From Sandarakinorhabdus sp. (GTDB taxonomy: Bacteria > Pseudomonadota > Alphaproteobacteria > Sphingomonadales > Sphingomonadaceae): a DNA stretch of 64,000 nt. Below the pieces are notes generated by a model. The model was not told where the DNA came from. It saw only the letters and a list, made by a program, of their open reading frames with translations, and did no database searches. Positions 11,459 through 52,683 of the stretch are shown here, piece after piece (the stretch's first letter is position 1; each line of letters starts with the position of its first letter). Location of the stretch: positions 4,156 to 68,155 of the forward strand of contig NZ_JBHYDQ010000016.1 of the NCBI RefSeq assembly GCF_051860625.1. Reading direction: 5' to 3'. The position numbers and the translations under genes were made by a program.

Positions 11459-12775
11459 ATGGCTGCGTCGGGACCGGCTGTGGAGGTGAAGCCACGCTTG
11501 CTGCTGTGGACGCTGCTGGTCGTCTATATCTTCAATTTCATCGATCGCCAGATCGTTGCCATTCTCGCCGAACCGATTTCCCGCGATCTCGGCCTGTCCG
11601 ACAGCCAATTGGGCCTGCTCACCGGCCTGGCGTTTGCCCTGTTCTACGCCACCTTGGGGGTGCCGATTGCCCGCATTGCCGACAATGGCCGCACCAACCG
11701 CAGCCGGCTGATTGCGGTGTGCGTGGCGGTGTGGTCGGCGATGACCGCGCTGTGCGGCCTGGCGCAGAATTTCTGGCAGTTGCTGATTGCCCGCATCGGC
11801 GTGGGCGTGGGCGAAGCCGGCTGCACGCCCACCGCCCATGCCCTGATCGCCGACAGCCTGCCGCCGGAAAAGCGCGCCGGCGGCATTGCCTTCTTTGGCC
11901 TTGGCATCCCGATCGGCGGCCTGATGGGCACGTTGATCGGCGGCGGCATGGCCGAACTGTTGGGCTGGCGCGCCGCGTTTTTCGTGGTCGGCCTGCCGGG
12001 CTTGCTGCTGGCGGTGTTCGTATGGTTTTTCCTGAAGGATCCACGATTTGTCGGCGCCGGGGGCCGCGCTGCGCCGGAAAATGCGCCGCCGCGCCTGTCG
12101 ATGTGGTCCAGCCTGAAGGCACTGGCCGCTTCGCCGGCCTATTGCCTGGTTTTATCGGGCGCATCGATGGTGGCCTTCCTGTCCTATGGCAAGGGCGTGT
12201 GGGTGCTGGTGTATTTCCAGCGCAGCCACGGGTTGAGCGTGGGGGAGACGGCACTGTATGTCGGCGTGATCCTGGGGATTGCCGGCATCTTCGGCACCTG
12301 GCTCGGCGGGTGGGCGGCCGATCGTTTTGGCAAGCATGACAAGCGCCACATGCTCACCCTGCCGGCCTGGGCGATGGCGTTGGCAGCCCCCATCTTGTTT
12401 GCGGGCTATTGGGTGGATGATTGGCGGCTGGCGATTGCCTTGCTGGTGCTGCCCACCGTGGCCAATTCCGCCTATTACGGCCCGGCTTACGGCGCGGCGC
12501 AGGTGCTGGCCCGGCCGGATACGCGGGCGATGGCGGCGGCGTGGATGGTGTTTGCCCAAAATCTGATCGGGCTGGGGCTGGGGCCGCTGCTGTTCGGTGC
12601 GCTGTCGGACATGCTCAAGCCGGAATATGGTGCCGAATCGGTGCGGCATGTGCTGTATTTTGCGGCATGGGCCGGGCTGGTGCCGGCGCTGTTGTTCTGG
12701 CTGGGTGCGCGGGCGCTGGGTCGCGAGACGTCGGGGAAGGGACTGCCAGATGCAAGTGTTGCGCACGCCAAATGA
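11459..12775 (+). CDS. MFS transporter
   Basis: ORF 10913..12775. ATG 11459 ([33 protein letters not shown]). 12-TM-like pattern. [11 protein letters not shown] loop motif. Confidence 0.8.
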
Positions 12776-38390: not shown

Positions 38391-38602
38391 TCGGCGCTGT
38401 CGGTCGTGTCGGCCGGCTGGGCCTGTTTGGCGGCGCCATCCGCCGGGTGGTGCGCAGCGCAGATTTCACATTGTCGAACGCCAGTGTCGCCACGATCTGG
38501 GGCACTGTCGAGGTCGGCAATCTTGTGCCGAGTGACGCGCCTGCGGGCGCCTATTTCGTAATCGTCGGCGAACCTGCCGGCCTGGCAGTGGTGAACGGCT
38601 GA
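38387..38602 (+). CDS. hypothetical protein (GTA insert ORF B, 71 aa)
   Basis: Internal ATG 38387 of ORF 38123..38602. ATGA upstream and TGATG downstream coupling. Confidence 0.5.
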   Translation: MIGAVGRVGRLGLFGGAIRRVVRSADFTLSNASVATIWGTVEVGNLVPSDAPAGAYFVIVGEPAGLAVVNG

Positions 38603-41319
38603 TGGCTATTCGTGTCGCAACGCAGGGCGCAACGCAGTTGCAGTTGCCGGCCGGGATCACCAAGCCGGCCAATTTCCTGACCGGGCGCAGCATCGGCGGT
38701 GCTGACGGGCAGATCATGGGCTATTGGCAGGCGTTCATGGTCCGCCTGCCCAACAGCGGGTGGCAGACCGGCAATTTCCGCCGCTTCCTGCTGGGCGGTG
38801 CCGTCTATGGCGCGACGCCCGGCCTGATCACCGAAGCAACCACTGGCACCAGTGTTGGTGTGAATGGCGTCTGGCTGGGGCAGGACAACACCGAAAGCGC
38901 CAACCTGTCGGGTGCTGCGCTGCGTCTGCGCCCGCGCGTGCTGTGGCGCGGCAATGATCAGTTGCTGGGCTATGCCTGGCCCTATGCGGCGGCCAGCATC
39001 AACGAAACCGACTTCACCAATCTGACCCAGCTTACCACGGGTGCCGCCTGGCTCATGCTGTCGGGTGTCACCAACACCGCCGCGCAGGGCGACACGCCGG
39101 TGTGGCGCGGTTGGGCGGCCAACTGCCTGATCGGGCCGGATGGTGTCGTGTCGAGCGATATCACCAGCACCGGGCCACAGAACAACACCTGGCTGGAGGC
39201 CACGACCGGTTCCGTGCTGATGCGGCAGGTGTTTCTGGCTCAGGCCAGCGGCGGCAGCATCGCGCTGAACAGCATCGTCGGCACTGAGATCGAGCATATC
39301 GCGCTGTGCCAGGGCGATTTCCCGTGGAATACGGCGACCGACCGTCCGCACCACGATGCCATTGCCGCCCTGGCCGGCGTGACCGGTGCGACTCCGCTCA
39401 ACTATGCCGGCCTGGTGGCCGCGCAGAACGCCGGCAGCTTGCCTTATGCCAATTGCCGGCAGGGCAAGGGTGATCTGACCCACCATTGGCCGCTGGCCGA
39501 TCTGACCCCGGCGGGCCTGACCAGCACCGGCAGCGCCACGCCTGCGACCTTCGAACAGGTGAACTACAACAGCCTGTCGAACGGGCTGGCGGCTGAAGCG
39601 ACTCTGGCCCCGCTGCACTGGCAGGGCGGTGCCCCGGCAATCACGGCGCCTGCTGTCAAGTTTCAGGGCGGGCGCGGGACATTGCCATTCACCATCGGTG
39701 GCACCTATCAGGCCGGCACCACCGCGCTGGAGCGGCGCTGGGAAGTGGAAGCCACCGGCAACGCTGTGCCCGGCTTTGATTGGGAAGCCGTGGACGTGAT
39801 CGGCAGCGGCACCTGGCAGACCACCGACACGCTGCCGATCGGCGGCCCCTACACGCTGCGCGTGCGCGATAGCGCCGATACCGGCCGCGCTGTCGCGATG
39901 ACCGGGATGCTGGTCGGCACCGTCATGCTGGCCCATGGTCAATCCGGCATGGCGCAGGCGCTGCGCACCGGCGACAACGTGCTGGGGATCGCCGTGGATG
40001 CCGGTGCCATCGGCGTGTATCTGACCGCCAGCAACGACGCGGGCGGTGCCAGCTATGTCAAGCCGGTGCCCGTCACCTATGCGATGAACGGCGGCGCCAC
40101 GCCGCCCATCGCCAGCCATGGCAGCATCTTGTTGCTCAACGAGTGGAACGCCCACAACCCCGGCCACCCGCTGCTGATCGCCAACATGGCCATCGGCGGG
40201 CGATCGATGGATGAATGGACCGCCGACAGCGCCTGGGGGCAATGGACCTTCCTGGGCAATGTCGGCGAACCGGGCGTGGCCGGGCCGGATGGTGTTGGCC
40301 ACACCGGGCATTTTGCCTGGATGATGCGCGGCTATACCGATTGCCACGCGATCATGTGGACGCCGGGCATGTCGAGCGTGCAGGCCACCCGCAACGCCTA
40401 TGCCGCCGCCATCGATGCTCGATTCGATGCCAGCCCGAACGCGCCGTGGCTGGTGATGCCGCCGTGGCGGGGCCACCGCAGCGCGCCGGAAAACTCGGCG
40501 ACGGTGGGCAAGCGTGCGCAGCATGTCGATTTCGTCGCCGAACGCGGGGTCCGCGGCATCCTTGGTCCCTATTGGCCGGATATCGTGATGGACGGCAACC
40601 CGCAGCCGGCCGACACCACCGCGCAAGGCAGCCTGCACAGCGCCTATCACAGCGACGCCTCTGCCGGTGGCGGCGGCAGCCCGGTAAGCGATCAGAACCA
40701 GGTCGGCCAGGGCCGGCTTGGGCGCGGTATCGGCCGGGCGCTGGCGTGGGCGTTTGACCGCACGGTGAAGGCCATCGGCCCGCGCGTGGTCGGCGCCTGG
40801 TTCCGCGATGCCGGCCGCACGGTGATCGAGGTCGAGATTGGCCGCGCGGTGCGCACATTGAACGGCGCGGCGATCAGCGAGCAGTTCTGGGTGAGCAGCG
40901 ACGGCGGCACCAATTTCATCAAGACGGGTTTCACAGTGGCACTGGATGCCACCGGCGCCCGTGCGGTGCTGACCAGCACGGGCGGGGCATGGCCGGAAAC
41001 GACGACTCGCGTGGATTACGCCCGCGCCTGGCCGTTCGGCCCGGCCGACGGCGATCTGGATGAGACCCTGACCGAACGCAAGCTGGATGGGCTGTTGTAT
41101 GACGATCAGGTGTATCGCGGCGGCGTGAACCTGGCGACGCCGGCCGGCAATCCGCTGGCCAGCGCGAACGGGAACGGCGTGGCGGTGACGGCGCGCGGCG
41201 CAGCGAAGCTGCTGGCCACCGAACGCTGGGCCGGCACGCGCAACGTGACCGTGCGCATGATGGCCGCCGACGGCGTGACGGTGCTTGCCGAAAAGACCCT
41301 GGCCGTAACGGGAAGCTGA
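38602..41319 (+). CDS. large GTA-embedded protein (insert ORF C, 905 aa): LamG-like N-terminus, beta-sandwich, sialate-O-acetylesterase-like (SGNH/SASA) core
   Basis: GQSGM at 39937..39951, AIGGRSMDEW at 40189..40218, AIMWTPGMSS at 40348..40377. C-terminal RVDYARAWPFGP resembles the SASA-family tail. N-terminal IVGTEIEHIALCQG resembles a LamG end motif. All by eye. Confidence 0.7.
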   Translation: MAIRVATQGATQLQLPAGITKPANFLTGRSIGGADGQIMGYWQAFMVRLPNSGWQTGNFRRFLLGGAVYGATPGLITEATTGTSVGVNGVWLGQDNTESANLSGAALRLRPRVLWRGNDQLLGYAWPYAAASINETDFTNLTQLTTGAAWLMLSGVTNTAAQGDTPVWRGWAANCLIGPDGVVSSDITSTGPQNNTWLEATTGSVLMRQVFLAQASGGSIALNSIVGTEIEHIALCQGDFPWNTATDRPHHDAIAALAGVTGATPLNYAGLVAAQNAGSLPYANCRQGKGDLTHHWPLADLTPAGLTSTGSATPATFEQVNYNSLSNGLAAEATLAPLHWQGGAPAITAPAVKFQGGRGTLPFTIGGTYQAGTTALERRWEVEATGNAVPGFDWEAVDVIGSGTWQTTDTLPIGGPYTLRVRDSADTGRAVAMTGMLVGTVMLAHGQSGMAQALRTGDNVLGIAVDAGAIGVYLTASNDAGGASYVKPVPVTYAMNGGATPPIASHGSILLLNEWNAHNPGHPLLIANMAIGGRSMDEWTADSAWGQWTFLGNVGEPGVAGPDGVGHTGHFAWMMRGYTDCHAIMWTPGMSSVQATRNAYAAAIDARFDASPNAPWLVMPPWRGHRSAPENSATVGKRAQHVDFVAERGVRGILGPYWPDIVMDGNPQPADTTAQGSLHSAYHSDASAGGGGSPVSDQNQVGQGRLGRGIGRALAWAFDRTVKAIGPRVVGAWFRDAGRTVIEVEIGRAVRTLNGAAISEQFWVSSDGGTNFIKTGFTVALDATGARAVLTSTGGAWPETTTRVDYARAWPFGPADGDLDETLTERKLDGLLYDDQVYRGGVNLATPAGNPLASANGNGVAVTARGAAKLLATERWAGTRNVTVRMMAADGVTVLAEKTLAVTGS

Positions 41320-44390: not shown

Positions 44391-44575
44391 CATTTGCCGA
44401 TGCGGCGCGGCGGGCTGCGCATGTCGCGGCGGCCGTGCTGGGCTGGCGGCCGGGCGAGTTCTGGGCGGCGACGCCCGCGGAGCTGTTGACCGCGCTGGGG
44501 CTGGATACGGCACCGGCCGCGCCGGCCGATGCCGCGAAGCTTGCGGCCTTGATGGAGGCATTTCCCGATGGATGA
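44387..44575 (+). CDS. GTA tail assembly chaperone (g10.1)
   Basis: Internal ATG 44387 of ORF 44273..44575. LGWRPGEFWAATPAELLTAL pattern. Confidence 0.7.
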   Translation: MTFADAARRAAHVAAAVLGWRPGEFWAATPAELLTALGLDTAPAAPADAAKLAALMEAFPDG

Positions 44576-45104
44576 GGTGGACGAGCTGGTGGTGAAGCTG
44601 CGCGCCGACACCGGCGGCTTTCTGGCCGGGGTGGGGGAGGTGCAGCGCACGCTGGATGGCCCGTTGGCGGCCGGGCTGGAGCGGGCAGGCGCGGGGCTCA
44701 GTCGTTCGCTGGGGCGGGCGCTGGCGGATGGCAAATTGGGGTTTGACGATCTGCGGCGCATTGCGGTGTCGGCGCTGGGCGATATCGCGAGCCAGGCGCT
44801 GCGGCTTGATCTGCGGTCGCTGTTCGGTGGCGGTGGCGGCGTGATCGGCGGGCTGCTCGGTTTGCCGGGGCGCGCCACCGGCGGATCGGTGAGCGCCGGG
44901 CGCGCCTATATGGTTGGCGAACGTGGCCCGGAAGTGTTTGTGCCCACTGCGGCGGGGCGGGTGGAGGCCAATGGCGCCGGTGCGCGGCCGGTGAACATCA
45001 CTGTGAATGTTGCGGCGCCGCGCGAGGCCAGCGCGGCGGTGATGCAGCAGACCGGCAACCAGGTGGCGCGCGCCGTCGCCCGCGCGCTGGAGCGGGCGCG
45101 ATGA
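44568..45104 (+). CDS. short tape measure protein (g11)
   Basis: 178 aa. Gly-rich centre, then AYMVGERGPEVFVP motif. Confidence 0.8.
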   Translation: MDEVDELVVKLRADTGGFLAGVGEVQRTLDGPLAAGLERAGAGLSRSLGRALADGKLGFDDLRRIAVSALGDIASQALRLDLRSLFGGGGGVIGGLLGLPGRATGGSVSAGRAYMVGERGPEVFVPTAAGRVEANGAGARPVNITVNVAAPREASAAVMQQTGNQVARAVARALERAR

Positions 45105-47437
45105 TGCGCTGGTGGCTGGCCGACGCCGACGACAGGCAAGCGACGCGGCATGTGCGGCGGTTCGATCCGCGCTGGTGGCTGGTGGATTTTCCGCGGCCGA
45201 TGATGGCCAGCGTGGTGACGGAAGGCGCAGAGTCGGTGGTGGTGCGGCTGGAATTTCAGCGGCGCAATGATCTCGCCGGGCTGATCTGGGAATCGGCGGA
45301 CCGCTGGAGCCACCGGCTGTGCGCTTTGGAAGAACGGCGCGACTATCGCGGGCTGTTGTGGCGGTTTCGCTGGCAGGCGAGCGGCGATGTGCTGGCGCTG
45401 GATGTGCTGAACGGCCCGGTGCTGACCATCGAGGGGCGGGACGCGGCGGGCAGCCCGCGTACCTGGTATGTGCGGCTGTGGAACTATGCGGTCGGCACGC
45501 CGATGGATGCCGAAATTGCGCTGGATTTCGATGCGCTGGTTGGCGGATTTCTGCTGCCAGCCGAGGCCGATCCGGTGTGGGCTGGCGATATCGACCGCAT
45601 GTTCATCAGCCTGGTGCCGCCGGGCTATACAGGTGCCGACACGCCATTGCTGGCGGTGGCGCAGGCGGAGGTGCGGCTGACGACCTTGTTGCTGGAGGGC
45701 GACGGCGCCGTGCTGCGCGCCGGGCGGCCGGCGCTGCCGCCGCATGACTGGCGGCTGTGCACCGCCTATGACGACAGTTACAACCAGACGCCGGAGCGCA
45801 TCCTGGAGCAGGCGCTGCTGCTCGGCTGGCGGGGGGCGATCACCCACTATCTGGGCATGAGCCATTTCATGGCGCTGCTGCCGGAAGGGGATGATTATCT
45901 GGTCGATCCGGCGCGGCCCTTTTGTGGCCCGGCGCAGGCCTGGCATGCGGATTTTCTGGCGCGGGCGCAGGCCTTGGGCTTTGCGCCGATCCTGTCGCTG
46001 TCGATGGAGTTGTTCGCCGCGCATTGCCCGGCCGATTGGGCGCAGCGCGATGTGGATGGGGCGATGGGCCTGACCGGCTGGGTGCCGCCGTCGGCGCTGC
46101 TGTCGCCGTGCCATCCGGGAGCGCAGGCCTGGTTGCAGGCCGTGGTCGCTGCCGCGATGGCGCTGGTGCCGGCCGGCATGGCGCCGGCATTTCAGGTGGG
46201 GGAGCCGTGGTGGTGGGTCGGGCCGGATGCGCGGCCTTGCCTTTATGATTCGGCGACGGTGGCGCGCTGGACTGGCGAAACCGGGCTGCCGCCGCCGCCG
46301 ATGGCCGATATTCGGGGCGCCAAATCGCCGGCCGAGCAGGCGTATCTCGATTGGTGCGGCGCGCGGCTGGCCGAGGCCACGGCCGGGATGGTGGCGGCGG
46401 CGCGGGCAGCGGCGCCGGATGTGCGCACGCATCTGCTGTTCTATGCGCCGCAGGTGTTGCTGTATGACCGGCCCGATCTGGCGCGCGCCAATCTGCCGGC
46501 TGCCTGGGCCTGGCCGGCCTATGATGTGTTACAGTTGGAGGATTACACCTTCGTCACTAGCGCCAACCAGGCCGGGCAGGCGCGGGCGCGCGCAGCGGTT
46601 GATGCGCTTCTGGGTTATCCGTTGGCCCAGCAACATTATCTGGCGGGTTTTGTGCTGAATGCCGAAGATGCAGCCGCGCAATGGCCGCTGATTGCCACGG
46701 CGGCCGCGCAGTCGCCGGCGGCCGAACGCTTCATCTGGGCCTGGCCGCAGGTGGCGCGCGACGGCTTCACCCCCTTCATGCTTGTTGATGGAGACGATGC
46801 CATGCCGGCGTTTCACGATGTGCGCTTCCCGCTGCATTTGGGCTATGGCGCCGCCGGCGGCCCGGCCTTTTCCACGCAGGTGGTGGTGACGGGTTCGGGC
46901 GCCGAGCAGCGTAACGCCGAATGGGCCGATGCGCGGTTGGAATATGATGCCGGGCTGGGCGTGCGGTCAGAAGCCGATCTGGCGCAATTGCTGGCGTTTT
47001 TCCGGGCGCGGCGCGGGCAGGCGCATGGCTTTCGGTTTCTCGATCCGCTCGACAATAGTTCGGCGATGGCGGGCGAGCCGGCGGCGACGGATCAGCCGCT
47101 GGGGGTGGGCGATGGCAGCACCACCCGTTTTGCGCTGGTGAAGCTGTATGGCGATGATGGCCTTGCCGATGATCCGCCGCAGCGTCGGCGAATCACAAGG
47201 CCGTGGCCGGAAACGGTGCTGGTGGCGGTGAACGGCGTGGCGCAGTCCGGCTGGACGCTAGGTGAGGCTGGCCACATCGATTTTGCCACACCACCGCCGC
47301 CGGGCGCGCTGGTCACGGCCGGCTATCGCTTTGATGTGCCGGTGCGCTTCGCCAGTGACCGTATCGCGGTGTCGATCGCCGGCTGGCAGGCCGGCGAGCT
47401 GCCTGGCGTGCCGCTCATTGAAATCCGCGAGGATTGA
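45101..47437 (+). CDS. distal tail protein g12 (DUF2460) fused to a 567-aa N-terminal extension
   Basis: The C-terminal 211 aa from the internal ATG at 46802 (MPAFHDVRFPLHLGYGAAGGP...FFRARRGQAHGFRF) are DUF2460-like. No stop between 45101 and 46802. GGAGA lies 7 nt upstream of 46802. Confidence 0.8.
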   Translation: MMRWWLADADDRQATRHVRRFDPRWWLVDFPRPMMASVVTEGAESVVVRLEFQRRNDLAGLIWESADRWSHRLCALEERRDYRGLLWRFRWQASGDVLALDVLNGPVLTIEGRDAAGSPRTWYVRLWNYAVGTPMDAEIALDFDALVGGFLLPAEADPVWAGDIDRMFISLVPPGYTGADTPLLAVAQAEVRLTTLLLEGDGAVLRAGRPALPPHDWRLCTAYDDSYNQTPERILEQALLLGWRGAITHYLGMSHFMALLPEGDDYLVDPARPFCGPAQAWHADFLARAQALGFAPILSLSMELFAAHCPADWAQRDVDGAMGLTGWVPPSALLSPCHPGAQAWLQAVVAAAMALVPAGMAPAFQVGEPWWWVGPDARPCLYDSATVARWTGETGLPPPPMADIRGAKSPAEQAYLDWCGARLAEATAGMVAAARAAAPDVRTHLLFYAPQVLLYDRPDLARANLPAAWAWPAYDVLQLEDYTFVTSANQAGQARARAAVDALLGYPLAQQHYLAGFVLNAEDAAAQWPLIATAAAQSPAAERFIWAWPQVARDGFTPFMLVDGDDAMPAFHDVRFPLHLGYGAAGGPAFSTQVVVTGSGAEQRNAEWADARLEYDAGLGVRSEADLAQLLAFFRARRGQAHGFRFLDPLDNSSAMAGEPAATDQPLGVGDGSTTRFALVKLYGDDGLADDPPQRRRITRPWPETVLVAVNGVAQSGWTLGEAGHIDFATPPPPGALVTAGYRFDVPVRFASDRIAVSIAGWQAGELPGVPLIEIRED

Positions 47438-47438
47438 G

Positions 47439-48239
47439 ATGCTGAGCGATGATCTCACTCATCTGGCGCTGTGCTGGCGGCTGGTGCGCCGCGATGGCGC
47501 GGCGCTGGGCTTCACCAGCCATGATGCGGCGTTGTTGGTGGATGGCCTGATCCATCTGGCGCGGCCGGGGATGACGCCGTCGGCGGTCGTGCTCGGCGAC
47601 GGGCTGGAGGCCAACGACATGGAAGTGGCCGGGGCGCTGTCGGCCGGGGCGTTGACGGCGAGCGATCTGCTGGCCGGGCGCTGGGATGGCGCACGGGTGG
47701 AATTGTTCCTGGTCGATTGGCGCGTGCCGGACGCTGGCCGCCATGTGCTGGCCAGCGGCACGCTGGGCGAGGTGGCGGTGGGTGACGGGGCGGACGCCAG
47801 TTTTACCGCCGAGCTGCTCGGGCCTGGCGCAGCGCTGGCGGCAAGCGCGGTCGAGCTGTGTTCGCCGGAATGCCGCGCCGAACTGGGTGATGCGCGCTGC
47901 CGGGTCAGCCTGCGCGGCCGCGAACCGATCTTGTTGTTGGCCGAGGCCGAACCGGATCGGGTGCGCGCCGATGGCATCACGGCGGCGGATTTTGCGCAGG
48001 GGTCGCTGCTGGTGCTGGATGGGCCGCAGGCCGGGCTGGAGCGGCGGCTGATTGCCGAGGATGACGGCTGGCTGCTGTTCGATGAGCCGTTGGCGCTGGC
48101 GGCGGGCACGCGGGTGCAGGTGCAGGAGGGGTGTGACAAGCGTTTTGCCACCTGCCGCGACCGCTTTGGCAACGCCGCCAATTTCCGCGGCGAACCGCAG
48201 GTGCCGGGCGCGGACCTGCTGACGCGGTATCAGTTCTGA
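47439..48239 (+). CDS. tail hub protein g13 (DUF2163 / BR0599 family)
   Basis: ATG 47439. LALCWRLVRRDG...GFTSHD and C-terminal CDKRFATCRDRFGNAANFRGEP. Confidence 0.85.
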   Translation: MLSDDLTHLALCWRLVRRDGAALGFTSHDAALLVDGLIHLARPGMTPSAVVLGDGLEANDMEVAGALSAGALTASDLLAGRWDGARVELFLVDWRVPDAGRHVLASGTLGEVAVGDGADASFTAELLGPGAALAASAVELCSPECRAELGDARCRVSLRGREPILLLAEAEPDRVRADGITAADFAQGSLLVLDGPQAGLERRLIAEDDGWLLFDEPLALAAGTRVQVQEGCDKRFATCRDRFGNAANFRGEPQVPGADLLTRYQF

Positions 48240-48664
48240 TGCGCGCGGCGGTGAAACTTTCGCGGCGCCGGCGGGCGGCGCTGGCGGCGGCGCGTGCGGG
48301 CATCGGCACGCGGTTTCGGCCGCAGGGGCGGGTGCCGGGGCTGGGCCTTGATTGTGTCGGCGTGGTGCTGCTGGCGGCGGCCGGGGCCGGCGTGACGCTG
48401 CCGGCGCTGCCGGTTTATGCGCTGGGCGGCGATCATGGCGCGTTGCTGGCCGACACCGTGCGGGCGTTGCGCCTGCGCCGGGTGCGGCGCGCCAAGCCCG
48501 GGGACATCATCGTGTTTCGGCTGGCGGCCGGGCATCGCCACATGGGCGTGCTCAGCGATGTCGGGATCATTCATGCCCATGCCGGCCTGGGGCTGGTGGT
48601 GGAGGGGCCGGTGCCGGGTGATTGGCCGGTGGCGGCGGTGTGGGGGCTGCCGGGGGTGCGGTGA
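48239..48664 (+). CDS. NlpC/P60-family cell-wall peptidase (g14)
   Basis: GLDCVGVV (Cys nucleophile) and HMGVL...IIHAH motifs. TGATG coupling. Confidence 0.85.
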   Translation: MRAAVKLSRRRRAALAAARAGIGTRFRPQGRVPGLGLDCVGVVLLAAAGAGVTLPALPVYALGGDHGALLADTVRALRLRRVRRAKPGDIIVFRLAAGHRHMGVLSDVGIIHAHAGLGLVVEGPVPGDWPVAAVWGLPGVR

Positions 48665-48733
48665 CGCGGCGGTTTCGAAGCGTGGGTGATGGGCCGCGGC
48701 GTTCGCCGGGGTGACGGGAAAGGGTGGAGCAAC

Positions 48734-50869
48734 ATGGCCAGTCTGGTGCTCGGCGTGGTCGGGCGGGCGGTGCTGGGCCCGTTTGGCGGCATCGTCGGTA
48801 CGCTGCTCGGCGGTGCCATCGATCGCAGCCTGGCGGGTGGCCGGCGCAGTGCGGGGCGGCAGGCGGTGCCCGAAGTGCAGGCGGCCAGCTATGGTGAGCC
48901 GATCCCGGTGGTGCGTGGCCGCATGCGGCTGGCCGGCAATGTCATCTGGGCAGCGCCGATCCGCGAAACGGCGACGCCCGGCGGCGGCAAGCGGGGCGGG
49001 GGTGGCGGGATCAGCTATTCGGCGAGCTTTGCCGTGCTGCTGGCGCGCGGGCCAGTGCAGGCCATCGGCCGGGTATGGGCCGACGGCAAATTGCTGCGCG
49101 ATGGCGCTGGCGAGTGGCTGCAACCGGTGACGATGCGGCTGCTGCCCGGCAGCGAGCGGCAAGCGCCGGACCCGTTGATTGCCGCGGCCGAAGGCGCCGC
49201 TCCGGCATTTCGCGGCCTGGCGGTGGCTGTGTTCGAGGATCTGCCGCTGGCCGAATTCGGCAATCGCCTGCCCAATCTGGCGTTCGAAGTGATTGCCGAT
49301 GCGCAGCCTGTTGATCTGGGCAGCGCGATCACGGCGGTGGCGGCGCAGGTGGATGTGGCGTTGCCGGTGCGCGGGCGCTTTCCGGTGGTCGATGGCCTTT
49401 ATCTCGGCCGGTCCGGGCCGTTGGCCGATGCGATTGCGCCCGCGGTACAGGCGGCCGGTGCAGTGCTGGCGGCTGGCACCGCGCTGGTCGGTCCGGGGCT
49501 GCCGGTGCTGTCGATTGCGGCAGGCGATGCTGCCAATGCGCGGGCGAATGGCGGTGAGGCGGTTCGCGATCGGCATTTTCGGGCCGCCAGCCACACGGCC
49601 GCCGATGCAGTCGAGCTGGGCTATTTCGATGAGAGCCGCGACTATCAACCTGGCCTGCAGCGCGCCCGGCTGCGCAGCGGCGCTCGGGTGGACAATGTGG
49701 CATTGCCGCTGGTGCTGTCGGCGGTGGCGGCCAAGGCGCTGTGCCAGGATCGGTTGCTGCGGCTGGCGGCGGCGCGTCAGCGCCGGACGCTGCATCTGCC
49801 GTGGCGCTTTCTGGGCTTGCGGCCCGGCGATGTGCTGCGGCTGGATGGCAGCGATTGGCAATTGCGCGAGCTGCGCTTTGCCGGGTTCGTGCTGACACTG
49901 GAACTGGCACGGGTGCCGGGCGCGGCGGCGCCGTTGCTGGCCAGCGATGCTGGTCGCGGGCTGGATCATGGCGATCGGGCGGCCGGGCCGACGACCTTAC
50001 TGGCGCTCGATCTGCCGCCGTTGCCAGGGGAGCTGCCGGCGGGGCCGCGGCTGTGGCTGGGTGGCGCCGGTGCCAGTGCCGGCTGGCGGCGTGCAGACGT
50101 GGTGGTGAGCGTGGATGCCGGCATCAGTTGGCAGCGGGTCGGCAATCTGGGGGCGACCGTGCTGGGCCAGGCGGTGACCGTGCTGGCGCCGGCGCTGGCG
50201 GCCGGCTGGGATCGCCTTGGCCAGGTCGAGGTCGAACTGCTGAACGATGCGATGTGGTTGGAAAGCCGGCCGGAAGCCTCGGTGCTGGCCGGGGCCAATC
50301 TGGCGCTGCTCGGTGACGAGTTGATCCAGTTCAGCAGCGTGCAGGCCATCGCGCCGCGGCGGTTTCGGCTGGCGGGCTTGCTGCGCGGCCGGCGGGGGAC
50401 CGAGTGGGCGGTGGCCGGGCATGTGGCCGGCGAGCGATTCGTGTTGATCGATGGCGGCGCCTTGCTCCGCCTGGATGTGCCGCTGGAACTGCTGGGGCAG
50501 ACGATCCTGCTGCGGGCGGCCGGGGTTGGCGATGTGGGGGTGCCTGCGCAGCCGGCGATGGTGGGCGGTGCCGGGCTGCAGCCGTTGGCGCCGGTGCATC
50601 TGGGTTGTGTGCGTCGCGATGGGCAGTTGCAGTTCGGGTGGATCGCGCAGAGCCGCGCCGGCTTTGGCTGGCCGGATGGGGGCGACGTGCCGGTGGGCGA
50701 GGCGCGAATCGCCTTCCGGGTACGCTTGCGCGATGCGATCGGTACCGTGGCCGAAGCAGAGGTGAGCGAACCGGTCTGGGCCTTTCCGGAGCGGCCGGGG
50801 CCGTTGTGGCTGGATGTTGCGCAACTGGGCAGCATGCCGGGCCGCACCGCAAGCCTGGCAATAGACTGA
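48734..50869 (+). CDS. GTA host-specificity / phage-tail protein g15, short form
   Basis: ATG 48734 after AAGGGTGGAG. SYGEPIPVVRGRMRLAGNVIWA...GGGISYSASFAVLLARGPVQAIGRVWADGKLL and FGNRLPNLAFEV are g15 N-terminal hallmarks. Confidence 0.85.
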   Translation: MASLVLGVVGRAVLGPFGGIVGTLLGGAIDRSLAGGRRSAGRQAVPEVQAASYGEPIPVVRGRMRLAGNVIWAAPIRETATPGGGKRGGGGGISYSASFAVLLARGPVQAIGRVWADGKLLRDGAGEWLQPVTMRLLPGSERQAPDPLIAAAEGAAPAFRGLAVAVFEDLPLAEFGNRLPNLAFEVIADAQPVDLGSAITAVAAQVDVALPVRGRFPVVDGLYLGRSGPLADAIAPAVQAAGAVLAAGTALVGPGLPVLSIAAGDAANARANGGEAVRDRHFRAASHTAADAVELGYFDESRDYQPGLQRARLRSGARVDNVALPLVLSAVAAKALCQDRLLRLAAARQRRTLHLPWRFLGLRPGDVLRLDGSDWQLRELRFAGFVLTLELARVPGAAAPLLASDAGRGLDHGDRAAGPTTLLALDLPPLPGELPAGPRLWLGGAGASAGWRRADVVVSVDAGISWQRVGNLGATVLGQAVTVLAPALAAGWDRLGQVEVELLNDAMWLESRPEASVLAGANLALLGDELIQFSSVQAIAPRRFRLAGLLRGRRGTEWAVAGHVAGERFVLIDGGALLRLDVPLELLGQTILLRAAGVGDVGVPAQPAMVGGAGLQPLAPVHLGCVRRDGQLQFGWIAQSRAGFGWPDGGDVPVGEARIAFRVRLRDAIGTVAEAEVSEPVWAFPERPGPLWLDVAQLGSMPGRTASLAID

Positions 50870-50882
50870 AGAGGAGAGGGAT

Positions 50883-51335
50883 ATGCCGGAAACTCCGCGC
50901 CTGGCGCTGCCGTTGCTGGCAGCCGGGCAAAGCCAGAAGGATGTGACCCACAATGATGCGCTGCTGGCGATTGATCGGCTGGTGACGCTGGCGGTGGAGT
51001 CGCGTGGCGTGACGGCACCACCGGTGAGCCCGAACACCGGGGCGGTGTGGATCGTGCCGGCCGATGGTGCCGCGGATTGGGAGCAGGCGGCAGGCACGTT
51101 GATGCACTGGTTGGGCAATGGCTGGCTGGCGCAGACGCCGCGCAGCGGCCAGATGGCCATGGTCGTGGATGAAGCGGTTTTGCTTGTTTATGCCGGTGGC
51201 TGGCATCTGGTGCGGCATCTGGCAGCGCCAGCCGCATTTGCCATGCCCAGTGGCGGCGTCACGGTTGACAGTGAAGCACGGATGGCAATTGTTGGATTGG
51301 TCACGGTGCTGCAGCAACAAGGCTTGCTGGTGTGA
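50883..51335 (+). CDS. DUF2793 domain protein (GTA-associated)
   Basis: LPLLAAGQSQKDVTHNDALLAID motif. AGGAGAGG RBS. Confidence 0.8.
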   Translation: MPETPRLALPLLAAGQSQKDVTHNDALLAIDRLVTLAVESRGVTAPPVSPNTGAVWIVPADGAADWEQAAGTLMHWLGNGWLAQTPRSGQMAMVVDEAVLLVYAGGWHLVRHLAAPAAFAMPSGGVTVDSEARMAIVGLVTVLQQQGLLV

Positions 51336-51480
51336 AGCGCCGGTAAATGGTTGCATTTTCCCCGACTACCTGTGGCAGCGCAGCAACAGAGCCGGACAAT
51401 ACGTGCTTGCGCCCGGGCAATACGCTAGGGTAGAGATTGCTGGATGCCAGTGTTTGACTGGCCACACAAAGGGGAAGACG

Positions 51481-52683
51481 ATGCGCAAATTTGCGATCGG
51501 CCTGGCCCTCGCTGCAACTGCGCTCTCGAGCGCAGCCGTGGCGAAGGACAAGGCTTGGTATATTGGTCTGGAAGCGGGCGTTGGCCTGCTGGAGAATCAG
51601 GACCTCAACATTTCGACGGCCAACCGCGCAGCGACCGTCAACAACGCCATCAAGCAGGTGTATTTCCCCGGCTTCGATGCTGGTGGTAACATCGGTTATG
51701 ATTTCGGCGGCTTCCGGACCGAATTCGCGCTCAACTACCTGCGCTTCAACAACCGCACCAACAATGTGAACGCGGTTACCCCGCCGATCAATTACACCAA
51801 TCAGAACGGCACTGGTCTGCTTGGCTCGCCGCCGCTTGGTCAGTACCGGGATTCCGGTGGCTCCGCGAGCGCGCTGGCCTTCATGCTGAACGGCCTCGTC
51901 GATTTCGGCGGCAAGGACAAGGCGGCTGGCGGTTATGTTGGTGCCGGTGCCGGTATAGCGCGCGTGACCACCTTTGGTCGCATCCGCGAACCCGGCCGTG
52001 TGTTCGTTGACGATGCCGATACCGCATTTGCCTGGAATATCCTGGCCGGCGTGTACAAGCCGATCAGCGACCATGTCGATATCGGTCTGAAATATCGTTA
52101 TCTGAACGTGACCAATGTCGATGCGTTCACCAACAATGGCCTGCCGATCGATACCCGCTTCCGCAGCCACAGCGTGCTGTTCACGCTGACCTATAATTTC
52201 TTCCAGGCTGAGGCTGCGCCGCCACCACCGCCGCCACCGCCGCCGCCGGTAGCTGCGGCCCCGCCGCCACCGCCGCCGCCGTTGCCGCCGTGTCCGCCGG
52301 CTGCCGTGACACCGGGTCCGTTCCTGGTGTTCTTCGATTGGGATCGTTCGACGATCACGGCCGAAGCTGCTGCGATCCTGGATCGTGCTGCCGAGCAGTA
52401 TATGGCCACAGGCCAGACCCGCGTTGTGCTTGCCGGCCACGCCGACAAGTCCGGTCCGGACGATTACAACCTGAAGCTGTCGCAGCGCCGCGCTGATGCC
52501 GTGAAGGCCTATCTGGCCGGCAAGGGTGTGGGTAGCGACGCGATCGCCACCGAAGCCTTTGGTGAAGGTCGTCCGCTCGTTGATACCGCCGATGGCGTGC
52601 GCGAACCGCAGAACCGTCGTGTGGAAATCACCTTCAGCGGTGCCATGGCGCCAGCGCCGACCGGTCCCTGCCAGCCGCAGTAA
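51481..52683 (+). CDS. OmpA-family outer-membrane protein (beta-barrel, Pro-rich hinge, OmpA_C)
   Basis: ATG 51481 with signal MRKFAIGLALAATALSSAAVA. Poly-Pro linker. C-terminal GHADKSGPDDYNLKLSQRRADAV peptidoglycan-binding motif. Confidence 0.85.
   Translation: MRKFAIGLALAATALSSAAVAKDKAWYIGLEAGVGLLENQDLNISTANRAATVNNAIKQVYFPGFDAGGNIGYDFGGFRTEFALNYLRFNNRTNNVNAVTPPINYTNQNGTGLLGSPPLGQYRDSGGSASALAFMLNGLVDFGGKDKAAGGYVGAGAGIARVTTFGRIREPGRVFVDDADTAFAWNILAGVYKPISDHVDIGLKYRYLNVTNVDAFTNNGLPIDTRFRSHSVLFTLTYNFFQAEAAPPPPPPPPPPVAAAPPPPPPPLPPCPPAAVTPGPFLVFFDWDRSTITAEAAAILDRAAEQYMATGQTRVVLAGHADKSGPDDYNLKLSQRRADAVKAYLAGKGVGSDAIATEAFGEGRPLVDTADGVREPQNRRVEITFSGAMAPAPTGPCQPQ
52213..52290 (+). repeat. (CCG)n-type low-complexity tract encoding the poly-proline hinge
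   Basis: ccgccaccaccgccgccaccgccgccgccg...ccgccgccaccgccgccgccg, read directly. Confidence 0.6.

Follow-up and report, generated by a model that had tools for sequence, protein, structure and literature searches.

The distal tail protein (Dit) of RcGTA, a gene transfer agent (GTA), and that of Rhodobacter phages are stand-alone g12 products of about 208-210 amino acids (aa). In the RcGTA particle, the N-terminus of Dit (Ala2) contacts both the hub and the megatron of the baseplate, and odd and even Dit subunits differ in conformation, which resolves the mismatch between 6-fold and 3-fold symmetry (PMC7296036). The megatron, encoded by g15, has a peripheral TIM region at aa 230-744 in RcGTA (PMC7296036), and this TIM domain sticks out from the baseplate (bioRxiv 10.64898/2026.07.19.739414). 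Clusters of this kind in Sphingomonadales were treated as GTAs by Kogay et al. (PMC7360931). We report here on the g12 gene of one such cluster, contained in a 64,000-nucleotide stretch of Sandarakinorhabdus sp. (assembly GCF_051860625.1, contig NZ_JBHYDQ010000016.1, positions 4,156 to 68,155), called the window below; coordinates are those of the window, and all the features given for it lie on its + strand. We propose that this g12 is the Sphingomonadales form of an 'evolved', that is, enlarged, Dit gene of an RcGTA-type GTA, from which two in-frame products would probably be made.

The gene consists of a single open reading frame (ORF) of 778 codons plus stop (45101..47437), which starts with an ATG at 45101 and shares an ATGA with the stop codon (TGA, 45102-45104) of the tape-measure ORF 44568..45104. 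ORF and Pfam analysis divided it into four parts. A beta-sandwich (NCTSP_N, PF23844; aa 18-208, 45152..45724; 6e-84) is followed by a TIM barrel resembling those of glycoside hydrolases (GH) (TIM-barrel_NCTSP, PF23845; aa 213-556, 45737..46768; 6e-135), then by an acidic Gly/Asp/Glu linker of variable length (aa 557-567, 46769..46801), and finally by the DUF2460 Dit. The linker codons encode an internal Shine-Dalgarno (SD) sequence, GGAGA (46790..46794), 7 nt upstream of an ATG at 46802-46804, from which a nested frame for a 211-aa Dit of the Rcc01695 type, starting MPAFHDV, runs to the end of the ORF (46802..47437). The protein read from this ATG begins MPAFHDVRFPLHLGYGAAGGP (given again as MPAFHDVRFPLHLGYG). 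On re-reading the sequence, the uninterrupted ORF, the ATGA overlap and the 7-nt spacing of GGAGA and ATG all agreed with what had been written of them in an earlier note on this DNA, made from the letters alone.

That note had also assigned the last 211 aa to the DUF2460-type distal tail proteins, which similarity searches bore out. Residues 572-776 matched DUF2460 (PF09343) over the entire model (positions 1-205 of 205) with 246.3 bits for a cutoff of 30.4, and TIGR02217 ('phage distal tail protein, Rcc01695 family') with 215.9 bits for a cutoff of 136.65. The RcGTA Dit Rcc01695 (PDB 6TBA) aligned end to end with aa 570-776 (9e-53), as did the Dit of roseophage R4C (PDB 8GTC; 4e-46). By homology, the C-terminal 211 aa are a member of the Rcc01695/DUF2460 Dit family. 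They share with RcGTA g12 and R4C Dit the N-terminal motif M-x-(x)-F-H-[DE]-V-R-F-P and the site between tape measure and hub. The difference lies in the gene: the annotated g12 of the window is 778 aa long, compared to about 200-210 aa for stand-alone Dits, and the 211-aa form, nested at the end of the ORF, can be obtained only via the internal start.

The N-terminal 567 aa are the beta-sandwich plus TIM barrel of PF23844/PF23845, a module known from the sheath proteins gp65 and gp64 of coliphage N4, whose non-contractile sheath gave both families their name. Both models were matched in full, PF23844 with 280 bits (positions 1-191 of 191) and PF23845 with 450 bits (positions 1-348 of 348), for a cutoff of 27 each. 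Residues 53-130 of N4 gp65 (PDB 9LC0_I) matched aa 15-92 of the module, and residues 110-408 of N4 gp64 matched the barrel (2e-37), including the GEPWWW and (L/I)EDY motifs. The strand-loop patterns that had drawn attention to this region, HYLGMSHFMAL, QVGEPWWWVG and VLQLEDYTF, are all present in the translation. In an AlphaFold2 (AF2) monomer model built from 77 homologues, with a mean predicted local distance difference test score (pLDDT) of 85.5, aa 1-208 were all-beta and aa 213-560 formed a (beta/alpha)8 barrel, both mostly at pLDDT >90. Searching the PDB with Foldseek returned, in order, N4 gp64 (E 2e-21, TM 0.63), gp65, the R4C Dit, and then glycoside hydrolases, namely GH31 alpha-glucosidases, GH50 agarases, a GH10 xylanase and GH14 beta-amylases (E 1e-6 to 1e-8), as well as PgaB. 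Matches in BFVD included tail proteins from the phages Goslar, IMEAB3, MJG and uligo and from an N4-like Delftia phage. Three Glu were 100% conserved across a diverse set of 94 homologues with 27-54% identity, namely E303, E368 (in Q-x-G-E-P-W-W-W) and E480 (in L-E-D-Y); Y250, Q365, W372 and Y482 were invariant too, and D224 was present in 96%. Because the three Glu are invariant family-wide, they suggest that a glycosidase-like, sugar-active site may have been retained. The guess of a GH-like TIM barrel, made in the earlier note, was therefore right as to the fold (AF2 model, Foldseek GH matches, three invariant Glu) and wrong as to the family, which is PF23844/PF23845.

In N4, a six-fold collar around the tail tube is made up of six gp64:gp65 heterodimers (PMC13434306), with gp65 as the receptor-binding major sheath subunit and gp64 as the minor one (PF23844/PF23845; PDB 9LC0, 9YF4/5). 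The arrangement in this podophage differs from that of the window, as the parts of the module are borne by two proteins, gp65 having eight further domains, whereas g12 has one compact 567-aa module fused covalently to a siphophage-type Dit. The split was located by aligning window aa 15-258 with chain I of PDB 9LC0 and aa 271-556 with chain M: gp65 corresponds to the beta-sandwich and first barrel strands (aa 193-258), and gp64 matches the remainder of the barrel. The heterodimer of the N4 sheath may go back to a form of the module that was split or duplicated. More widely, the PF23844/PF23845 module was found in 566 clusters at 50% identity, placed N-terminally, C-terminally or in the middle of host proteins of 600-2900 aa, and sometimes paired with Phage-tail_3 or glycine-rich fibre domains. 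Among cultured phages, it is present in 'tail fibre' proteins of rV5-like phages, phapecoctaviruses, Acinetobacter phage Loki and N4-likes. Such a distribution marks the module as a tail cassette that has been shuffled widely.

The fusion of this module to Dit is not confined to the window. All three domains (PF23844+PF23845+PF09343) were found together in 120/120 of the best protein clusters, down to 57% identity, from Sandarakinorhabdus, Polymorphobacter and Glacieibacterium. When GTDB species were scanned, each through a single genome, at least 588 loci were confirmed; the best 80 were analysed, with Sphingomonas, Sphingobium, Sphingorhabdus, Sphingosinicella, Chakrabartia, Parasphingopyxis and other genera among them. 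In 78 of these 80 the module ORF ran uninterrupted into the Dit, and the other two were cut short, L046 by the end of its contig and L044 by a frameshift. Comparison of g12 lengths across these related clusters gave complete ORFs of 753-787 aa in 75 of the 80 loci; exceptions included a premature end at 657 aa (L025), an ORF running off its contig (L015) and one of 719 aa. The same fusion was seen in 80 IMG/VR contigs and in two divergent loci (50% and 56% GC), and synteny with the hub, peptidase and short megatron held in nearly all loci with enough downstream sequence. Not one complete copy among those compared departed from this architecture, and on this comparative evidence the fusion is a clade-wide trait of Sphingomonadales GTAs.

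Since the internal SD and ATG resemble a normal gene start, a sheath-like gene and g12 might have been merged by a sequencing or assembly error, through a lost stop codon or a frameshift, and one copy, in a low-quality metagenome-assembled genome (MAG; L044), is in fact interrupted. We consider an artefact of this sort extremely improbable and rejected it: about 160 copies from independent assemblies are uninterrupted, some of them in complete genomes or in isolates (for example Polymorphobacter fuscus, Sandarakinorhabdus cyanobacteriorum and Sphingomonas aerolata). The frameshift-like end after the barrel in L044 (a Sandaracinobacter MAG) and the 657-aa ORF of L025 (a Sphingobium MAG) both occur on low-coverage contigs, and are probably assembly errors, not unfused genes. 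Another locus, L051 (NZ_LSHP01000109.1), is labelled as the betaproteobacterium Acidovorax delafieldii CCH4-A2 and has a typical Sphingomonadales-type fused g12 with GTA tail genes, a likely case of contamination or mis-binning. A scan of viral contigs with a stand-alone homologue recovered no unfused ancestor, in which a module gene would adjoin a separate Dit gene; it yielded additional loci of the fused GTA type and a single phage (L163) in which the module lies next to tail-fibre genes. A literature search on the Pfam names or the fusion returned only the remark that Sphingomonadales g12 and g15 'differ in length' (Kogay et al. 2020, methods).

The argument for a second product comes from the junction between linker and Dit, which was compared across 160 loci (141 unique sequences for the tree and the SD counts). 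An in-frame ATG (about 78 loci), GTG (about 77) or TTG (4) was present at the junction in 159 of the 160 loci, 2-3 codons before the F of F(H/D)DV, where stand-alone Dits begin. The residue at this site varies between Met, Val and Leu, so the conserved property is that of being a start codon, and not the amino acid. Val was encoded by GTG in 67/67 unique sequences. By comparison, the share of GTG in 70 other Val-rich columns had a median of 60% and a next best value of 92%, and no such column mixed three start codons. Leu at the site was encoded by TTG, which makes up 15% of Leu codons elsewhere. With Fitch parsimony on a neighbour-joining tree of the unique sequences, at least 34 changes were counted, and all but one stayed within the start-codon set. 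Conservation of a hydrophobic residue instead of a start codon was rejected by the codon-level control over the 70 Val-rich columns.

The region upstream of the site has features of a ribosome binding site as well. A core SD (GGAG, GAGG or AGGA) was found in 134 of the 141 unique junctions, mostly 4-8 nt upstream, and the mean anti-SD duplex energy was -9.4 kcal/mol, compared to -3.7 kcal/mol at control positions (Mann-Whitney p=2e-42). Gly codons of the linker were GGA in 46% of cases versus 8% elsewhere (Fisher p=5e-8), a bias which indicates selection at synonymous sites. The 60 nt around the internal start had a minimum free energy of -12.4 versus -21.2 kcal/mol and a GC content of 54.5% versus 66.3%, and were among the 5% least structured 60-nt segments of these ORFs. 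No internal promoter or terminator beyond chance was detected at the junction. The start of the long form is mostly ATG and overlaps the tape-measure stop (ATGA, TGATG), with a weaker SD (-5.8 kcal/mol), consistent with translational coupling to the tape-measure gene. These results show the internal start codon and its SD to be under purifying, nucleotide-level selection across the order.

Could these observations be accounted for by the long fusion alone? The internal Met/Val/Leu and the purine-rich stretch would then be a hydrophobic residue and an acidic linker, or relics of an ancestral gene boundary. A number of facts lean this way, and together with three more general points they weigh against a second product. 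In the window taken alone, the SD and ATG at 46802 ranked 11th of 74 in-frame ATG, GTG or TTG codons by anti-SD pairing (-6.4 kcal/mol), no better than several chance sites; being within chance, the site acquires significance only via comparison with the about 160 related loci. Acidic Gly/Asp/Glu linkers naturally yield GA-rich DNA, and the GC dip and SD-like purine run are partly confounded with this composition, although the synonymous-codon tests argue against composition as the whole cause. Of the 160 loci, L040 (Sphingomonas sp. ZB1N12) alone has no in-frame start codon where linker and Dit meet; near locus position 11700 it reads GAG GTC GCG GAT GCG TTC, with the GGAGAC motif kept, perhaps because the short isoform was lost in nature, or else through an error of sequencing. 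As to the general points, we infer initiation at 46802 from sequence conservation alone; enzymatic activity of the barrel is a prediction, N4 gp65 being known as a receptor-binding sheath and not as an enzyme; and we know of no demonstration of GTA particle production in Sphingomonadales. We nevertheless regard the long fusion as sole product as improbable. A hydrophobic constraint permits GTC, GTT, GTA, CTG, ATC or ATT, against which every Val at the site is GTG and every Leu TTG, and the changes counted on the tree are independent ones that, but for one, led from start codon to start codon. Enrichment in GGA is synonymous and has no protein-level explanation. A relic, finally, would be expected to decay over the divergence observed, where pairwise identity goes down to about 40%. 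The proposal in the earlier note of two products made by internal initiation thus has strong support of a comparative kind, from a conserved start codon, a conserved SD and low mRNA structure.

Alternatively, the long protein may be cleaved in the linker, releasing a free sheath-like module and a free Dit, and the internal start would be redundant or minor. Linker residues 564-569 are predicted to be disordered (pLDDT <50 in the AF2 model), the homologous N4 module is a separate sheath protein, and in some siphophages tail-tip proteins do mature by proteolysis. We give cleavage little credence, as no recognisable protease site or tail-specific protease was found in the cluster, the linker is indel-rich in the family alignment without conservation of its sequence at the protein level, and the selection on start codon and SD would be left unexplained. 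Internal initiation at 46802 remains the more attractive source of a plain Dit.

The earlier note had further supposed that the extension is the module that sits inside g15 of RcGTA (GTA_TIM, PF13547), and suspected a complementary pattern between the two genes. The second supposition was correct. The window megatron aligned to residues 26-218 and 945-1393 of the R4C megatron, skipping the peripheral region, and an ORF of 705-870 aa stood at the megatron position in 64 of the 68 related loci with enough downstream sequence. The PF13547 peripheral domain is present in RcGTA, R4C and Rhodobacter phages, and is lacking in the window megatron. In the loci examined, the g12 module and a GTA_TIM in g15 were mutually exclusive. 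Since g15 lacks PF13547 exactly where g12 has a TIM barrel, and since both barrels are GH-like and would protrude from the baseplate (the GTA_TIM one does so in GTA particles), the domain might have moved from g15 to g12 by translocation within the cluster. We hold such a move to be very unlikely. A search of the extension against PF13547 and the GH families gave nothing even at E<=10, and aligning the fused-family profile by hhalign with gp22 of Rhodobacter phage RcHotPocket, a g15 product bearing GTA_TIM (PF13547 at aa 444-740), gave a probability of 0.2%; on these two results the identity of the two modules was rejected. No megatron or GTA_TIM protein appeared among the top 50 Foldseek matches in PDB or BFVD. 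The g12 module belongs to a distinct family with no detectable sequence similarity to PF13547, has its own N-terminal beta-sandwich, and is spread over unrelated phages. The two also differ in number, with three copies of the megatron GTA_TIM per particle and up to six of the g12 module on a Dit hexamer. Replacement of GTA_TIM by a domain of a different family is the explanation that we favour.

From these elements, the following scheme can be proposed for g12. Ribosomes coupled to the end of the tape-measure gene would start at 45101 and make the long product of 778 aa (roughly 85 kDa), in which the beta-sandwich and GH-like TIM barrel, followed by the short acidic linker, precede the N-terminus of Dit. 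A second set of ribosomes would bind the internal SD in the linker codons and start at 46802, making a canonical Dit of 211 aa (roughly 23 kDa) with an N-terminus like that of RcGTA g12. Both proteins would be made, and both would enter the Dit hexamer. The module would then project around the tail tip as a polysaccharide-binding or -cleaving collar, taking over the role of the TIM 'peripheral' domain missing from the Sphingomonadales megatron, and perhaps also filling that of the TspA tailspikes, which exist in Rhodobacterales only. The short form would supply those Dit subunits whose free N-terminus must pack against hub or megatron; a buried Dit N-terminus could not carry a 567-aa extension, hence a possible need for the short form.

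A stricter version of this scheme, in which the isoforms co-assemble in a set pattern, is speculative, and we rather doubt it. Long and short subunits might, for instance, alternate around the Dit hexamer, three of each. Were it true, a 3 long : 3 short ring would mean that the gene itself encodes the break from 6-fold to 3-fold symmetry at the tail/baseplate junction, and three glycosidase modules of the N4 type would take the positions that the three megatron TIM domains have in other GTAs. On this version, g12 would be a case of a genetically programmed heterohexameric Dit ring produced from one ORF by nested initiation, and one baseplate enzyme domain would have been replaced by a non-orthologous one in a neighbouring gene.

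The genomic context is that of a GTA. RcGTA-type parts in the window comprise small and large terminase, portal, capsid, tail tube, tape measure, g12-g15 and a DUF2793-like ORF, and around g12 the order is tape measure, g12, hub, NlpC/P60 peptidase, megatron. Upstream of g12 lies g11 (44568..45104), coding for a short tape measure protein of 178 aa that matches the PHROG tape-measure families phrog_8892 and phrog_1538 and, weakly, the NCBIfam model tape_meas_lam_C. Downstream come g13 (47439..48239), for a baseplate hub of 266 aa from the ATG at 47439 (PF09931 + PF09356, TIGR02218), and g14 (48239..48664), for an NlpC/P60 tail peptidase that scores 23.6 bits with PF00877 for a Pfam cutoff of 23, and whose match to TIGR02219, at 6e-11, reaches 42.9 bits, yet stays below the curated cutoff of 81.9. 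The short megatron of 727 aa follows (g15, 48686..50869), with Phage-tail_3 and Rcc01698_C as its only domains. Polymorphobacter fuscus (L001) has the same gene order as the window: terminase, portal, protease, capsid, a 911-aa ORF, tail genes, tape measure, a g12 of 773 aa, hub, peptidase, a megatron of 735 aa, DUF2793 and OmpA. In about 70 further genomes, ORF order and sizes agree with those of the window cluster. By gene content and order, this is an RcGTA-type head-tail cluster with collinear g1-g15-like genes, conserved across the order.

Three neighbouring genes were recorded besides. An ORF of 905 aa (38602..41319) lies between the capsid gene and the head-tail connector genes, at a place where RcGTA has no gene; it had no Pfam, NCBIfam or PHROG match, its counterpart at the same position in P. 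fuscus is the 911-aa ORF (L001 3283..6018), and the clade may have in it a head decoration or spike protein of its own. After the megatron, an ORF of 150 aa (50883..51335), equivalent to the DUF2793 gene of P. fuscus, matches PHROGs including a tail fibre family through its N-terminal ~110 aa, and seems to be no more than a tail fibre's N-terminal anchor. Directly downstream of the cluster is a gene for an OmpA-family outer-membrane protein (51118..52683 in the window, L001 16442..17620 in P. fuscus), and most other loci have ORFs of 350-440 aa at that offset, about 4 kb after g12; linkage of an OmpA-family gene with the GTA cluster may be conserved.

Knowledge of GTAs comes almost wholly from RcGTA, and these comparisons indicate that an entire order, with hundreds of species, builds its adsorption apparatus differently: in Sphingomonadales the megatron is without its baseplate TIM domain, and an unrelated, glycosidase-like module of the N4 sheath type is fused to Dit. 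Toggling between ATG, GTG and TTG beside a preserved SD makes an unusually clean signature of a nested gene. Such a gene predicts a Dit ring of mixed composition, with decorated and plain subunits, which bears on how six-fold tails dock to three-fold baseplates. Annotation pipelines and GTA classifiers that call g12 a single 780-aa 'DUF2460 protein' overlook both the enzyme-like module and the predicted second product.

Nested in-frame genes expressed by internal initiation are exemplified by lambda C/Nu3, T7 gene 4A/4B and phiX174 A/A*, and the products proposed here would likewise be a long and a short protein with a common C-terminus, read in one frame. Long and short structural isoforms are made by frameshifting in the cases of lambda G/GT and SPP1 gp17.1/17.1*. 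These resemble the proposed mixture of plain and decorated subunits, although they add C-terminal extensions, whereas the extension of g12 is N-terminal. We know of no distal tail protein, and of no GTA gene, for which nested initiation has been described, and our literature search found no description of a nested in-frame gene in either. In evolved Dits, carbohydrate-binding modules are inserted within the Dit. The evolved Dits of siphophages infecting lactic acid bacteria are enlarged by a saccharide-directed module that aids adsorption (PMC10688798, PMC7291167), and the window's Dit is similarly enlarged by an extra module, predicted to be saccharide-directed. It differs from them in carrying an enzyme-like TIM barrel at its N-terminus, and in having a conserved internal start that would regenerate the plain Dit, a feature for which we found no description in the literature on evolved Dits. 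In RcGTA itself, polysaccharides are degraded by TspA, a detachable tailspike arranged six-fold around Dit and baseplate and found in Rhodobacterales only (bioRxiv 10.64898/2026.07.19.739414). TspA forms a trimer of its own that is loosely bound; its gene lies outside the cluster, and it shows no homology to the g12 module. By analogy of position and predicted activity, it is likely the functional counterpart of the module that Sphingomonadales have fused to their Dit.

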